A DNA stretch of 64,000 nt from Armatimonadota bacterium. GTDB lineage: Bacteria > Bacteroidota > Ignavibacteria > OLB7. Under the pieces are notes generated by a model. The model did no database searches. It was not told where the DNA came from and saw only the letters and a program-made list of their open reading frames with translations. Location: positions 40,005 through 104,004 of the forward strand of contig JADZEY010000108.1 of NCBI GenBank assembly GCA_020850315.1, read 5' to 3'. Below are positions 10,494 to 43,950 of this stretch, piece by piece; position 1 is the first letter of the stretch; each line of letters begins with the position of its first letter. Position numbers and translations under genes: made by a program.

Positions 10494-10616
10494 GGTCTTG
10501 AAAAGAAATTTGCGGTGCTGAAGTGGTGGATGATAGTGGAACATGGCACCGTATCAAGGCGTTTCGCTAGTTAGACTACAACTTTCTCCTATCGTATGTT
10601 AGGCTCTATCCGCTTA

Positions 10617-10771
10617 ACTGACCTTACGCACAACCATGCTGGATCTTGGTAATTGCGGTACTTGGGTATTCCACCGGAACACACCCTCCGCTCATGCTGA
10701 GTCCCGTCGAAGTATGAGTGGAGCCACTGAACAAGCAACTGCTCACTCTTCAAATTCTGCGTAAGGTCAGT
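10617..10771. mobile_element. 155-bp MITE, copy 1
   Basis: Perfect 14-bp TIR ACTGACCTTACGCA...TGCGTAAGGTCAGT; 5-bp direct repeat GCTTA at 10612-10616 and 10772-10776; colinear second copy at 42196-42350. Confidence 0.85.
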
Positions 10772-10786
10772 GCTTAACACACAGCT

Positions 10787-35399: not shown

Positions 35400-35555
35400 T
35401 GTGATGTTGTTGTGTGTGTTCCCTTCCCGCGAAACTGGCGGCCAAAATACAACAGGGAAGCCATTGCCGGTTCTTCTTTTGTCGCACCAGTTCCACGCTG
35501 AGCAATACCCACACTAATGACTCGGGTGAAATGAGATTGCGAACATCCATCTTCC

Positions 35556-35780
35556 GCCCTGAAGGGGCAGCATACGTCAGCCCAGGGCAACGCCCTGGGA
35601 ACACAGTTCCCCCACGACCTCAACGCCCTGAAGGGGCAATTCAACACGCCGTTGTAGCCCATGTTCATCACATGGTGGTGGTGGTGATATTGTTGTGCCG
35701 CCCTTTCAGGGCTTGGGATATTGTTGGTTTGGGCAACCCAGGGCGTTGCCCTGGGCTATGGTAGCCTGCCCCGTTGGGGC
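35556..35780. repeat. Nested inverted REP/BIME-like palindrome cluster
   Basis: GCCCTGAAGGGGC (35556, 35625) and inverted variants (35700, 35768); AGCCCAGGGCAACGCCCTGGG (35579-35599) and its exact reverse complement (35737-35757). Confidence 0.75.
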
Positions 35781-35966
35781 GTGGAGAGTGATGGTGTTGC
35801 CGTTGCTGTGGGCATCCCGATTCTGTCGGGGCCAAGCGCATCCATCAGGCACGACTCAATAGAGCATCTCGCAATCTCAATGCACCCGAGTATATCTACC
35901 AGGCACAGTGATAGTGTTAATGGTGAAACAAGGCATGGCACCGGAAGGTGTACTCCCAAGTGCAAG

Positions 35967-39593: not shown

Positions 39594-42011
39594 TTAGTGT
39601 GCCACTGTCATCTTGGTTGCGCTTACTCCATCGGCGGTGCGGAGCGTGACGACGTACATCCCGGAGGCCGTGCCTGCAAGATCAATCACCACGCTGTTTG
39701 CGCCGGCAACGGTGCTGATGGTTTGCTGCGTCACCACGCGGCCATCCAAGCTCAGCACGGTGATGTCGGCCTTGCTGCCGTTGGCCGCAAAGCTGATGCG
39801 TGCATCGCCCGTTACTGGATTTGGCATCACAGCAAGGGCCGCGGTGTTTGCCATTCCGGTTTCCACTCCGCTTGTTCCGCTCTGCTTCATATCCACTGCC
39901 GGAAGCTCGGCAACCTTCCCATCTTCCACGCTCACTTCCACGTTCTTTGCTCCATAGCCCACGCGGCTGATTGTCAGTTGCAAGGTTCCGTTTGGCAGGC
40001 CGCTTAGTTCGAACTCACCATTTTGGTTGGTGTAGGCTGCGCCCACTGGTTCCCCCTCTGCGGTTTTTGCCGTCACCAATGCGCCAGCGATTGGCTTGGC
40101 TCCGCCCAACTCAGCTCCATGCTTCACGGTGCGTCCGTTCCCTTCGGCCACTGTTCCGCGAATCCGTCCGGTTCCGTTCTTTTGGGCGTAGGTCAGCAAG
40201 GTGATTGTGCGGCCCGATGTGTTGGTGTTCTCATCCACGCTGATCTGGGTTGCATCACGCCAATCGGCCACGGCATCGGCACCTTCCTTGTAGTAACCGG
40301 GCAAGTACCGGAGCACTGTGTCGTTGCTGCTGCGGTAGTAGCTGTATGCCATCAGCACATACTCCCCTGCACTCAGGTCGCTAAGGGTGTAGTTTCCGGT
40401 TGCGGAATCAGTTTCGATAGTGCGGGTGCTCCAGTAGTTCATGGCGTTGTTGCTGGCGGTGATGCGGTACGCCACCACTGTTGCTTGCAACCCACTGCCG
40501 TCGCGGTTCTGCACCGTGCCACTGATGCTGTTGTTCAGCGGGGTGCGTTTTGGCAGCGCAAAGTTGATGGTGCGGTTGGCCGTAAGCGTCATCTGGGTGG
40601 CTTGGGTTGGGTCGCTGGTGTTGTCGAAGTAGATCGGAATCCAGCGGTCATCTTCCTGCAAACGCCCGCTCATTGCGGCTGCGCGCAGGGCCCAGTTGTA
40701 GCGGTCGGAAAGTTGGCCGAAGCTGTAGGTTGCTGCGGTCGTCCCCTGCTGCATTGCATAGTTGGTATAAACCAATGGATTACGGGCAGCTTGGTCCGGG
40801 GGAAGCTCGCGGTCGTAGCCAATGGCGGTGACAATGCCACTCAGCGGGTCGCCAGTTTCCAGATCGGTAACGGTTCCGCTGATGCTGAAGTAGCGTGCCG
40901 GTGCGCGCTTCTTCACTTCCATGCTCACGTTTAATGTCTCGGCGCAGGCAATGGTGATCTGTTGTGCGGCATCGCGGCTGTAGGCATTGTTGTACCACTC
41001 GGTCACGATGTTGCCATTACCATTGTTGTTGCTGGCACCCTGAACCGATAGCACGTAGGTCCCAGCATCGGCAACGAACTCATAGAAGCCCTGCGTGGTA
41101 AGCCTGTGGGTGGCGACCTGACGATACAGACCGCTCCCCACAACCTCTTCCAACGTCACAGCGACGTTCGTATCCAACGCTCCGCCTTGCTCATCGCTGA
41201 TGATTCCGGAAATAATCGCTGGGTTCTGGCAGGCGCGGATGCTGATTGTTAAGTAGCAGAACGCTTGCACCGATGGGTCATCCAGCAAATATGCCTCGAT
41301 ACCTAAGTGAGCTTGGCCGTAGGTTCCCTTTGCGGTTGGTGTCCAGGAAATGATGCCTGTTTCGGGGTCAATCGTGGCATTCACTGCATCGCCTAAGGTG
41401 TCGGGGGTGTTGGCTCCGCCCGAGGCGTAGGTAATCCGGTAGCGAACGGTTCCGCCATTGCTTGCCGTGGCGTTGATGTCGTAGCTGAAGGCTTGGCCCA
41501 CGATTGCTTGCGCACCAATCTGGTAGCCATTGCTGATGGTGATAGTTGGCGGTGCCGGGCGTGCATGGGCGAATGCTCGGTTGCTGGATGCACTTATCGC
41601 ACCGTTCGCGCCGTAGGCAACAACGTAGTAGGTGTAGTAGCCTTCTTCCACTTGGTCAGTGTGGCGGAAAAATCCGCCGTTGGGGCTTGCGCTGTCGCTG
41701 GCATCGGCGTAGGCCACGGTGGCCACCAATGCAAAGTCTAACCCGCCGGGGGTGTTGCTGGAATCCATCCCTTCGGCTCGGTAGATTTTGAACCCGTCGG
41801 GCAACGCGCTCATGCCCCCTTGGTTTTGCCGGAACCAGCTCCAGCTTAGGTAAACGCTGTAGCCACTGTTTGCTTGGCTCACTTCTGCCGAAAGTCGCTG
41901 CGGCGCGCTGAAGGGGGATTGCGCAAGCACTGTTGTGCCGGCCACCACCATCAGTGCCATCAACGCCAACGCACGCTGCCAGAGTGTTCTGCTGTTGGTA
42001 CGCATCATCAT
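39594..42011 (-). CDS. T9SS cargo protein with FN3-like, cadherin/He_PIG-like and repeated carboxypeptidase-regulatory-like domains
   Basis: Signal peptide; GFKIYR...YYVVAY (FN3-like); IDPETGIISWTP; repeated ISGTV...G.Y modules; VMPNPV...SGMYVVTL CTD. Confidence 0.85.
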   Translation of the reverse strand: MMMRTNSRTLWQRALALMALMVVAGTTVLAQSPFSAPQRLSAEVSQANSGYSVYLSWSWFRQNQGGMSALPDGFKIYRAEGMDSSNTPGGLDFALVATVAYADASDSASPNGGFFRHTDQVEEGYYTYYVVAYGANGAISASSNRAFAHARPAPPTITISNGYQIGAQAIVGQAFSYDINATASNGGTVRYRITYASGGANTPDTLGDAVNATIDPETGIISWTPTAKGTYGQAHLGIEAYLLDDPSVQAFCYLTISIRACQNPAIISGIISDEQGGALDTNVAVTLEEVVGSGLYRQVATHRLTTQGFYEFVADAGTYVLSVQGASNNNGNGNIVTEWYNNAYSRDAAQQITIACAETLNVSMEVKKRAPARYFSISGTVTDLETGDPLSGIVTAIGYDRELPPDQAARNPLVYTNYAMQQGTTAATYSFGQLSDRYNWALRAAAMSGRLQEDDRWIPIYFDNTSDPTQATQMTLTANRTINFALPKRTPLNNSISGTVQNRDGSGLQATVVAYRITASNNAMNYWSTRTIETDSATGNYTLSDLSAGEYVLMAYSYYRSSNDTVLRYLPGYYKEGADAVADWRDATQISVDENTNTSGRTITLLTYAQKNGTGRIRGTVAEGNGRTVKHGAELGGAKPIAGALVTAKTAEGEPVGAAYTNQNGEFELSGLPNGTLQLTISRVGYGAKNVEVSVEDGKVAELPAVDMKQSGTSGVETGMANTAALAVMPNPVTGDARISFAANGSKADITVLSLDGRVVTQQTISTVAGANSVVIDLAGTASGMYVVTLRTADGVSATKMTVAH

Positions 42012-42195
42012 TGCTCCATCTGAAGGTTAAGTATGTGAAGTTTATCAATCGGGAGTTTGTTGTCGGTTGTTAGGAGAGGAAGAATGGGCCGGGTTGATAG
42101 ATATTCGCCGTGCCAAAGGCCTGCAGTGCCGTGTGACCCGATCGATTGTGATTAGGCACTGCAAGCCTTGGCGGGCGAATCTCTCTCTCTTATTG

Positions 42196-42350
42196 ACTCA
42201 CCTTACGCGGAATCATGCTGGAGCTTGTTGATTGCAGTATCTGGGTGTTCCATCTGACAACACCCTCCGCTCATGCTGAGCCCCGTCGAAGTATGAGTGG
42301 AGCCACTGAACGGCCAACTGTTCACTATCCAAATTCTGCGTAAGGTGAGT
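42196..42350. mobile_element. 155-bp MITE, copy 2
   Basis: TIR ACTCACCTTACGCG...TGCGTAAGGTGAGT; 5-bp direct repeat TATTG at 42191-42195 and 42351-42355; gap-free alignment to copy 1 with about 23 mismatches (hand count). Confidence 0.85.
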
Positions 42351-42356
42351 TATTGA

Positions 42357-43133
42357 TTATTGCGGTTTTGCTGGCTGTTTCAAATCAATGTTGATCCCAA
42401 CATTGATGGAATCCGGCTTTGCTATTGCAGGTAGAGGGTTGGCCGAGGACGCATCCGTTGCCACCGCTGCGGAGTTTGCTGTCGCCGCTTGATGGCTCCC
42501 GTCATGCCCCCGTGCTTCTTTCTGCTTGGCTATGTTCCCAGCCGAGCGGTTTGTTGTTGTGGTTGCTGGCGTGGGTGCGTTGCGCACAGCATTGCCCACC
42601 GTGTTGCTGGCTTCGCCTGGTTGGGTGATTGCCGCGCCTGCGGGCGCAGTTGTGGCGTGCGGTTGGGTAGCACGTTCCGCTCCCCCATTGCGTTGTTGCG
42701 TGGTTGGTGGCGGGGTGGTTTGCACTGTTGCTGGTGCGGTGTCGGCGGGGATATTTTCGGTGCTTCCCCAGGGTTGCAGCATCACGGTTCCAATCGCAAT
42801 AATGCCCACGATGATTGCGGTGACGGATGGATGCGCAGCCACCGCACCAAGCACCCGCTCTACCATCATCCCCCCTTGCGTTGCCGCAGGCTCCATCACC
42901 GGTGCCGGCGATGAAGTCAGTGTGGCGGCAACCCGATTGCGGAGCGCGGCGTGGCCTGCGGTCAAGCCATCGCGATCTTTCCGCACCGCTGTTTCCACCA
43001 GTCGGTGGGCCTTCAATTCTTGACGCAGTTCCGGGTTCACAGCTGCGTTGATAAAGAAGGCTTCCTCCTCGGCTTGGGTCATCTGGCCGTTCATGTAGCG
43101 TTCTATCAGTCTATCTCTATCGGCGCGGATCAT
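42357..43133 (-). CDS. Putative anti-sigma factor
   Basis: ATG overlaps the ECF stop (ATGA); LIERYMNGQMT.AEE anti-sigma-like N-terminus, one TM, disordered P/T/A-rich tail. Confidence 0.7.
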   Translation of the reverse strand: MIRADRDRLIERYMNGQMTQAEEEAFFINAAVNPELRQELKAHRLVETAVRKDRDGLTAGHAALRNRVAATLTSSPAPVMEPAATQGGMMVERVLGAVAAHPSVTAIIVGIIAIGTVMLQPWGSTENIPADTAPATVQTTPPPTTQQRNGGAERATQPHATTAPAGAAITQPGEASNTVGNAVRNAPTPATTTTNRSAGNIAKQKEARGHDGSHQAATANSAAVATDASSANPLPAIAKPDSINVGINIDLKQPAKPQ

Positions 43134-43822
43134 TGTTCTTCCTCCTGAATCCCTTCGGTTGAGCCGTTTGGTTCGTTGCTGCGATTGTTGTTGTTCATCC
43201 AAGCGTCATCTATCTCAATCATTGCGGCCACCAGCCGCGCAAGCTGTGCCCGTGCCCGCCATGCTCGCGTCCGCACTGCCCCGACTTGTTCCCCCAGCAT
43301 CTCGGCAATCTCCTCGAAGCTGTAGCCGCTGTAGGCATGAAGGATCAGAACCTCACGTTGCTGGATTGGCAATCGGGGAAGCGCTTGCACCACAAGCTCC
43401 TCATGCTGGCTCATCTCACGGATGGAGGTGGTTGGATGTCGGCTTTCCGGAATCGCCTCCAGAGAAGCATGAGCCTTTGCGTCGCGGATGTTGTTTAAGC
43501 AAAGGTTGCGGGCGATTCGGTACAGCAGCGGTAGCAGTGGGGCTTGCTGCTCGGTTCCGCGAAGTCGTATCACCCGTTCCCAGATGTCGTGAACTAAATC
43601 TTCGGCGCGCTCGTGGTCGTTCACGAACTTCATGCAGTACAGGTACAGGCGGTGGGTGTGGCGGTCGAACATCTGCATGAATGCGGAATCATCCCCCCGC
43701 AAAAACCGCTGAAACAGCAACTGATCCTCGTTCGGTTCGGTTGTGGTGCTGGCCACCGCCACACTGCTATGATGGGCAGCAGGGCGTTTTTTAAGCATGA
43801 TATCGTTCGGCTGTTCGGTCAT
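43130..43822 (-). CDS. ECF RNA polymerase sigma factor
   Basis: Region 2 AEDLVHDIW...LYRIARNLCLN; region 4 LPIQQREVLIL...SFEEIAEML...VRTRAWRAR. Confidence 0.93.
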   Translation of the reverse strand: MTEQPNDIMLKKRPAAHHSSVAVASTTTEPNEDQLLFQRFLRGDDSAFMQMFDRHTHRLYLYCMKFVNDHERAEDLVHDIWERVIRLRGTEQQAPLLPLLYRIARNLCLNNIRDAKAHASLEAIPESRHPTTSIREMSQHEELVVQALPRLPIQQREVLILHAYSGYSFEEIAEMLGEQVGAVRTRAWRARAQLARLVAAMIEIDDAWMNNNNRSNEPNGSTEGIQEEEQ

Positions 43823-43934
43823 GGTTCAATGCTTCTTGAAGGGGATAACACAACTGATTGGGAAACATCACACAGGAAGGAAGCAGCCGAATTTTTTTGT
43901 GTGGTGGGGATGAAGCATCTTCAAAGGGTGAGTA

Positions 43935-43950
43935 ACTGACCTTACGCACA
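43935..43950. mobile_element. Solo MITE terminal inverted repeat (remnant)
   Basis: ACTGACCTTACGCACA is identical to the first 16 nt of MITE copy 1; no matching body or partner end follows. Confidence 0.5.

Follow-up and report, generated by a model that had tools for sequence, protein, structure and literature searches.

Two short repeats with inverted ends lie in the window analysed here, a stretch of 64,000 nucleotides that corresponds to positions 40005-104004 of contig C108 in an assembly of 4.24 Mb and 138 contigs (the source genome, G000). A first-pass annotation took them for two copies of one MITE. In the second (copy 2), position 4 of the left terminal inverted repeat (TIR) and its partner base in the right TIR are both changed relative to the first (copy 1), so that the two ends stay complementary. 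The question raised by this locus is whether such a matched change reflects selection on the two ends, and on the hairpin between them, or has another origin. It was addressed by comparison of the source genome with congeners (G001, G002 and G003, of which G002 is the sister species) and with members of sister genera (G010, G011 and G019).

The two copies, their surroundings and their age

Both copies are 155 nt long (Table 1) and 85.2% identical in an ungapped alignment, and they are flanked by different target-site duplications, TATTG for copy 2 and GCTTA for copy 1, as the first-pass annotation had described (about 85% identity). The TIRs of copy 2 are ACTCACCTTACGC and GCGTAAGGTGAGT (outermost letters ACTCACC...GGTGAGT), which form an inverted repeat that is perfect over 13 nt and matched at 13/14 positions, with G opposite T at position 14. 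Those of copy 1, ACTGACCTTACGCA and TGCGTAAGGTCAGT (ACTGACC...GGTCAGT), form a perfect inverted repeat over 14 nt. The exchange at position 4, G to C on the left and C to G on the right, is indeed seen, the left/right pair being C/G in copy 2 and G/C in copy 1. The description of the central hairpin as nearly invariant also holds for the pair, which differs by one loop base over element positions 69-108. The nearest paralogue of copy 2 lies at C119:274-428 of the source genome and is 97% identical (young subfamily); the paralogues of copy 1 in the assembly do not exceed 86%. The two copies therefore come from different source lineages.

Copy 2 has a coding capacity of at most about 50 aa and lies in a spacer of 345 nt between two genes. 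Its end is 6 nt from the stop codon (42357-42359) of a minus-strand ORF, the distance reported earlier; the ORF is called anti-sigma only on account of its position, which is downstream of an ECF sigma gene, and of its single membrane helix. A promoter-like match on the minus strand (TTGAAA-16-AATAAT, 42383-42356), which is a match to the consensus only in a host phylum whose promoters may differ, stops just upstream of copy 2, and no terminator-like site is present at copy 2. In metatranscriptome contigs the neighbouring genes are thinly covered, and the depth of the repeat is roughly that of about 100 copies summed at background, which gives no indication of specific expression.

Table 1. 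Features of the window and tandem hairpin arrays elsewhere in the source genome (window coordinates unless a contig is named).
Feature	Position	Strand	Remarks
MITE copy 1 (element 10617-10771) with GCTTA duplications	10612..10776	+	155 nt, G variant at both ends
805-aa secreted protein gene, T9SS C-terminal sorting domain	39594..42011	-	Por_Secre_tail, CarboxypepD_reg; downstream of insertion
Left target-site duplication TATTG	42191..42195	.	G002: single site copy, no element
MITE copy 2, subfamily A1	42196..42350	+	155 nt
Left TIR ACTCACCTTACGCG	42196..42209	+	C variant at position 4
Hairpin module CCTCCGCTCAT-loop-ATGAGTGGAGCC, short-loop form	42264..42304	+	element positions 69-108
Right TIR TGCGTAAGGTGAGT	42337..42350	+	end of copy 2
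Right target-site duplication TATTG	42351..42355	.	read from sequence
Presumed anti-sigma factor ORF, 281 aa	42357..43202	-	one membrane helix, no Pfam match; upstream of insertion
ECF-type sigma-70 factor gene	43130..43822	-	Pfam Sigma70_r2, Sigma70_r4_2
Tandem hairpin arrays	G000 C88:15250-16096, C8:5230-5900, C127:11590-12190

Three further observations concern this neighbourhood. A long hairpin, GCCAAAGGCCTGCAGTGCC...GGCACTGCAAGCCTTGGC, at 42100-42176 between copy 2 and the start of the 805-aa gene is almost unchanged in the sister species, unlike the remaining spacer, and may serve in the regulation or processing of the sigma/anti-sigma/cargo unit. In G001 the orthologous spacer between the anti-sigma-like and secreted-protein genes (locus L070, C1:1740698-1741105) carries another element, an IS with a 152-aa DDE_Tnp_1 ORF and about 7 copies, which means that the same spacer was hit independently by two kinds of mobile element. 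Between the ECF sigma and MFS transporter genes, at 43926-43948, stands a tail-to-head junction in which GGGTGAGT, a degenerate right end, is followed by a single A and by ACTGACCTTACGCA, a solo left end of the same MITE superfamily; no partner end is found nearby.

The age of the insertions was examined by a search for empty sites. The sister species has both loci, with flanks that are 75-85% identical, and has an element at neither; its site at copy 1 reads CCGCTTAACAC, with a single GCTTA, and is a precise empty site. Many metagenomes from wastewater and activated sludge contain near-identical DNA. Contigs of run X1 match the flanks at 100% identity and are broken at the element. The copy 2 locus is spanned, in runs X5, X9 and X11, which belong to three other studies, by one contig with 97-98% identical flanks that joins 42189 to 42353; at the copy 1 locus, one contig of a 97% identical strain in runs X9 and X11 joins 10610 to 10771. 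This second empty allele skips exactly 160 nt, that is, the element and one copy of the duplication. At copy 2, 163 nt (42190-42352) rather than 160 nt are skipped, and the deficit of 3 nt could be a small indel in a run of TTATTGATTATTG or the footprint of an imprecise excision. The direction of the change among strains, gain or loss, is therefore not proven for copy 2; its absence from the sister species makes insertion after speciation certain either way. Since both copies are missing from the sister species and from a 97-98% identical strain, both insertions are recent and polymorphic within the species. The independent insertion of copy 2 and its membership of a mobile family, which had been proposed at the outset, are borne out by these empty sites and by the fixed 5-bp duplication.

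A MITE family with the ends of an IS701-type insertion sequence

A profile search of the source genome returned 218 matches to the copy 2 element. With one mismatch or none, the 13-14-nt end ACTSACCTTACGC(A) was counted 201 times in the genome, compared with 9 in a shuffled genome, and a second count of the 14-nt end ACTSACCTTACGCA gave 96 forward and 96 reverse occurrences (192) versus 0-1 for the control pattern. The same end was found 7, 6 and 0 times in the three congeners and 0-6 times in the other 17 genomes of the taxonomic family. The roughly 190 ends amount to about 95 elements in the source genome. Elements of 116-448 nt have common ends and at least four unrelated interiors. A perfect 5-bp direct repeat lies outside the ends in 26/70 nearest inverted end pairs, compared with 0-1 in offset controls and 0 for other lengths. 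When non-adjacent pairs were allowed, 35 elements (116-448 nt) with perfect 5-bp duplications were obtained.

The symmetrised consensus of the targets is T/TASTA/A, and GACTA accounts for 10/35 of the perfect duplications. This target is supplied by abundant (TGACTAA/TGACCAA)n heptamer arrays, which is why many copies abut such arrays. Copy 2 is a non-autonomous DNA transposon (MITE): it is small and non-coding, and it has the common TIRs, the fixed-length duplication, the empty sites and the ends of an autonomous IS. The family is new and recently mobile and is derived from an insertion sequence of the ISAba11 group of the IS701 family, and a literature search for MITEs in Chlorobi or Ignavibacteria found no report.

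The likely parent was traced by scanning the 21 genomes of the taxonomic family for the 14-nt end and looking for inverted pairs at IS distance. In G019, C314:6-1106 is an element of 1101 bp with perfect ACTGACCTTACGCA ends and one ORF of 352 aa, the stop codon of which lies inside the right end. Contig C4 of G011 holds a copy of 1032 bp, and C1:788071-789252 of G010 is an element of 1182 bp with ACTCACCTTACGC, the C variant, at both ends. The G019 transposase scores 291.9 bits on the NCBIfam model NF049921 (IS701 family; cut-off 250) and also matches Pfam DDE_5 (E = 9e-14). Its nearest plasmid-borne relatives are about 45% identical; they include 118 Acinetobacter records, as well as one gene annotated 'group ISAba11 transposase'.

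The MITE ends are identical at 14/14 positions to those of the ISs of G019, G011 and G010. On the right, the identity with the G019 IS extends to 22/23 nt when the 9 nt that precede the TIR are included, TCAAATTCT(T)GCGTAAGGTSAGT, and on the left the MITE end equals that of the G010 IS over 17 nt. The flanks of the autonomous ISs, TATTA/TATCA and TACTA/TATTA (4/5 matching), fit the target consensus of the MITE. The hairpin of the MITE is absent from the G019 IS.

The source genome itself retains a trace of such an element. By tblastn, only a remnant of an IS701-type transposase was found (C9:2961-3369). It comprises the degenerate end GCTGACCTCACGCA, the initial ~37 codons and a stretch that is 62% identical over residues 112-208; part of the interior is deleted, and a right end is lacking. 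In another strain, the locus of the remnant shows unrelated sequence and a contig break. This decayed remnant indicates that the lineage once had the IS. An intact IS701-type transposase is absent from the assembly; the source of the recent transposition may have escaped assembly or binning, or may have been lost already. A Pfam DDE_Tnp_1 search of the genome gave no match and missed the C9 remnant too.

Other routes to a parent within the source genome led elsewhere. Inverted ends 0.7-4 kb apart were chance pairs only, and self-BLAST for long repeats returned repetitive surface-protein genes and a 375-nt repeat family, with no IS-like repeat. ORFs running off contig ends, considered as transposases, proved to be paralogous surface proteins. 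A Pfam rve search gave one match, an IS3-family element in C36 with ends TGGTCCCC..., which was rejected as a partner of the MITE because its ends are different. This element (C36:130-1402, ends TGGTCCCCAAAACCTGGACAGG), with orfA/orfB and an A8G slippery run, is the only intact-looking IS in the assembly and is unrelated to the MITE.

Published work places ISAba11 in the IS701 family (PMC9771954), gives its length in A. baumannii ATCC 19606 as 1101 bp (PMC7760358) and describes the 'characteristic 5-bp direct repeats' that it makes (PMC7885321). Similarly, the autonomous relatives identified in the sister genera are single-ORF ISs, of 1101-1182 bp (1101 bp being also the length of ISAba11 itself), and their transposase passes the NCBIfam IS701 model. 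As for ISAba11, the duplications of the MITEs are exact and 5 bp long, and the autonomous relatives are flanked by near-duplicate AT-rich 5-mers. The differences are that the transposase is only about 45% identical to plasmid-borne relatives, that the hosts are uncultured Chlorobiota-like bacteria rather than Acinetobacter, and that the element studied is a 155-nt non-coding derivative, the ends of which were compared with those of ISs of sister genera.

The family also has counterparts among bacterial MITEs. Like Correia/NEMIS of Neisseria, ERIC, RUP and MITEAba12 (PMC6382973), it is small and non-coding, has TIRs and a fixed-length duplication, occurs in many intergenic copies, has the ends of an autonomous IS and would give a strongly folding transcript. 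It differs from them in that at least four unrelated interiors have the same ends and that an interior module occurs about 60 times without ends, while only the terminal nucleotides come from the IS (about 17 on one side and about 23 on the other).

Heptamer arrays (for example C40:40520-40617 and C133:24731-24814) accompany many of the ends. We counted 87 arrays of (GGTCAGT)n in the source genome, 24 of them directly after an end, and 69 further arrays of (RGTCATT)n that provide the favoured target T/GACTA/A. STRR-like heptamer arrays are known from heterocystous cyanobacteria. The heptamers TGACCAA/TGACTAA found here are the complement of TTGGTCA, which is STRR2. In cyanobacteria, STRR heptamer arrays, Nezha-type MITEs and small dispersed repeats (SDRs) were reportedly described by Elhai et al. 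(2008, Genome Res 18:1484). The MITEs described here likewise adjoin heptamer arrays, TGACCAA/TGACTAA included, in a different phylum, and (GGTCAGT)n repeats the last 7 nt of the transposon end, which is a difference from the cyanobacterial arrays. The STRR-like arrays look as if they had grown from, and been targeted by, MITE ends.

Independence of position 4 at the two ends

The behaviour of position 4 was examined in an alignment of 25 full-length copies (22 from the source genome and 3 from congeners). Positions 4 and 152 are C-G in 10 copies, G-C in 3, C/C in 7, G/G in 4 and C/A in 1. They are complementary in 13/25 copies and non-complementary in 12/25, and independence, calculated from the marginal frequencies, predicts 12.9. 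This is the lowest pairing among the 14 TIR positions. Over 67 end pairs of all element types, the states of the two ends are unassociated (29, 19, 13 and 6; odds ratio 0.70; p = 0.59). Among the 35 elements with perfect duplications, position 4 is matched in 16 and unmatched in 19; those with unmatched ends are genuine transposition products, since they carry perfect duplications.

These counts speak against the selection for complementarity of both ends that was proposed in the first-pass annotation. A pattern like that of the window, in which both copies are complementary with opposite variants, is shown by about 10% of random copy pairs (2 x 0.40 x 0.12, from the family frequencies). DDE transposases recognise each end as duplex DNA, so no pairing between the two ends is required. 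Matched ends are the outcome of common descent or of recognition by one protein and not of base-pair compensation, and the opposite variants of the two window copies (C/G in one, G/C in the other) are a coincidence.

The autonomous relatives have G at position 4 in G019 and G011 and C in G010, and one full-length copy of G011 has A opposite G. The dimorphism is an old one. Position 4 is matched in 3/4 autonomous IS copies, in agreement with selection on matched ends, which leaves room for some pressure of this sort in autonomous elements.

The hairpin module and other repeats

The proposal that the hairpin is conserved and under selection has two parts, and the first stands. Mean pairwise identity is 0.91 in the hairpin, versus 0.82 and 0.79 in the TIRs and 0.70 and 0.80 in the arms. 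The hairpin is also a separate module. A pattern search found 103 hairpin modules in the source genome and 1 in a shuffled genome, and 61 of the 103 are more than 150 nt from any TIR. The sister species has at least 60 hairpins, 94-98% identical, and only about one TIR-bounded element. Among 40 relatives, matches are confined to the genus, and apart from the source species the exact hairpin sequence was seen in a single species representative, 'MAG: Chlorobiota bacterium isolate new MAG-306' (JAEUSP01). Moreover, two families with the same ends, B and C (at least seven elements of 177-178 nt and several of 158-172 nt), have perfect duplications without the hairpin.

In a genome that is about 90% ORF, 84/103 modules are intergenic, and relative to flanking co-directional genes 21 are in sense and 21 in antisense orientation (crude ORF calls in both cases). 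Twelve hairpin sites of the sister species have syntenic flanks in the source genome, and 0/12 hold a hairpin there, which indicates that the sites turn over while the consensus persists. A comparison of hairpin insertions in the sister species with empty sites in the source genome showed intergenic regions too rearranged for clean unit ends.

It could be argued that selection keeps the ends complementary and the hairpin intact, with a functional folded RNA or DNA strand and a true compensatory pair at position 4. Indeed, the plus strand of copy 2 folds at -69.6 kcal/mol (z = -6.8), with an 18-bp closing stem and four hairpins; for the minus strand, which is the transcribed one, the value is -60.5 kcal/mol (z = -4.3). 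No segment is better conserved than the hairpin, and its consensus is kept at 94-98% between species whose flanks are 75-85% identical. However, within the source genome the stem pairs are nearly invariant, and the changes that keep a pair are one-sided (G-T to G-C), with no double changes, so that the covariation expected of such a structure was not observed. The loop is as conserved as the stem, and a search of copy 2 against Rfam gave no match, either at the gathering score or at E = 10. The equal numbers of sense and antisense modules, the lack of sites common to the two species and the counts at position 4 also stand against it, and we regard selection of this kind as very unlikely. The second part of the proposal is thus not sustained, given the separate spread of the module, families B and C, and the mosaic structure of the copies described below.

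Conservation of the hairpin could also result from a need for it in cis during transposition of the MITE, for instance as a site for a host or transposase cofactor, with selection at the level of the element. Conservation extends to the sequence of hairpin and loop, beyond structure, and short-loop and long-loop forms both occur in elements with duplications, as such a requirement would allow. Perfect duplications are nevertheless found in families B and C without a hairpin, the autonomous IS has none, and the 61 hairpins lie away from any end, which makes a requirement in cis extremely unlikely.

A third possibility is a REP-like hairpin spread by a RAYT (an IS200/IS605-type Y1 transposase), one copy of which was picked up by the MITE, so that conservation would reflect recognition by the enzyme. 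REP/RAYT systems and their tandem arrays were described by Bertels and Rainey (PMC3116915), and like REP/REPIN sequences the hairpins found here are short, abundant (about 100 copies) and intergenic, occur as singles and in evenly spaced arrays, and keep their consensus between species while individual sites turn over. They are not inverted doublets, however, and copy 2 has both TIRs and duplications, which REPINs lack. No Y1_Tnp gene is present in the source genome despite its hairpins, the single Y1 gene of the sister species has no hairpin within 1.5 kb, and G001 and G003 have Y1 genes and few or no hairpins. The RAYT hypothesis was rejected on these grounds, and we consider it most unlikely.

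The uniformity of the hairpin may instead be related to exchange between copies. In the youngest subfamily (10 copies, 90-97% identical), all four combinations occur in 42/66 pairs of informative sites, which comprised the loop form, TIR position 152 and ten others. Close copies are mosaics, and the four-gamete result could partly reflect recurrent mutation. With mosaic copies and about 100 hairpins, gene conversion could be sufficient to explain both the uniformity of the hairpin and the shuffling of the TIR variants.

Of about 100 hairpins, 28 have the long-loop form, with a 23-nt insert, CCTGTCCTGAGCCTGTCGAAGGG, that never changes its place in the loop (for example C98:14153 and C40:40663-40726); none of the 52 hairpins that were sampled from the sister species has it. 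The insert nearly duplicates the loop motif CTGAGCCCCGTCGAAG, and its distribution over MITE copies that are otherwise almost identical is scattered. Gene conversion may be the way in which it spreads, and its single hairpin-loop position is reminiscent of cyanobacterial SDRs in conserved hairpin contexts. Many of the hairpins belong to tandem arrays (Table 1) built of ~230-nt units, in which the hairpin core takes turns with another core, CCCTCTCCCA...TGGGAGAGGG; of these, the C127 array is bounded by one left and one right TIR as a 539-nt composite.

It is conceivable, though we hold it rather doubtful, that the hairpin module, perhaps with the 23-nt loop insert, is a self-propagating mini-element. 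Its copies number about 100 in the source genome and 60 or more in the sister species; it needs neither IS701 ends nor a RAYT, and it is carried inside several unrelated MITEs; its sites are not common to both species and its consensus is kept at 94-98%. If this were true, its spread would be driven by templated insertion or gene conversion and not by a classical transposase, and, together with the heptamer arrays derived from a transposon end, it would constitute a cyanobacteria-like nested repeat ecosystem in a Chlorobiota-like bacterium.

The window also holds a second MITE-like repeat, at 35517-35898. Its length is about 375 nt, its inverted ends, CTCGGGTGMAWTGAGATTGCGA, are ~22 nt long, and the genome has at least 15 copies of it. 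The only Rfam match of the window, Acido-Lenti-1 (35555-35599, minus strand, 39.6 bits), falls inside this repeat and has an inverted partner at 35737-35781. At this position the Acido-Lenti-1 'RNA motif' is part of a mobile repeat.

Taken together, the best explanation of copy 2, and one that we consider highly probable, is an IS701-type MITE with an independent position 4 and mosaic copies. Its parent would be a 1.1-kb IS of the ISAba11 group of the IS701 family, from which only the outer parts would derive (left side, about 17 nt; right side, about 23 nt). The interior would be unrelated DNA, including a hairpin module that appears to spread on its own in the genus. An IS701-type DDE transposase, probably the mobilising enzyme, is predicted from the sequences to bind the 14-nt ends ACTSACCTTACGCA in trans and to insert the element at T/TASTA/A-like sites, where a 5-bp staggered cut would produce the duplication. 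Copy 2 would have been inserted very recently, after its strain had diverged by ~2% from the strains that lack it. The transposase presumably tolerates both variants at position 4, a C/G dimorphism that is independent at the two ends and would be reshuffled by frequent recombination between copies; the hairpin would be homogenised by gene conversion.

These results carry a caution for the reading of such elements, because a matched change in the inverted repeats of two copies mimics RNA-style covariation, and here the census of the family contradicts it. Copy 2, which lies between a sigma/anti-sigma pair and a secreted-protein gene, may alter their coupling. For the annotation of metagenome-assembled genomes such as this one, many contig breaks and a large part of the intergenic variation are attributable to the family. 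It is a natural example of MITE spread underway: one species holds about 95 elements, its congeners have a handful, and strains from wastewater plants around the world are polymorphic for individual insertions.
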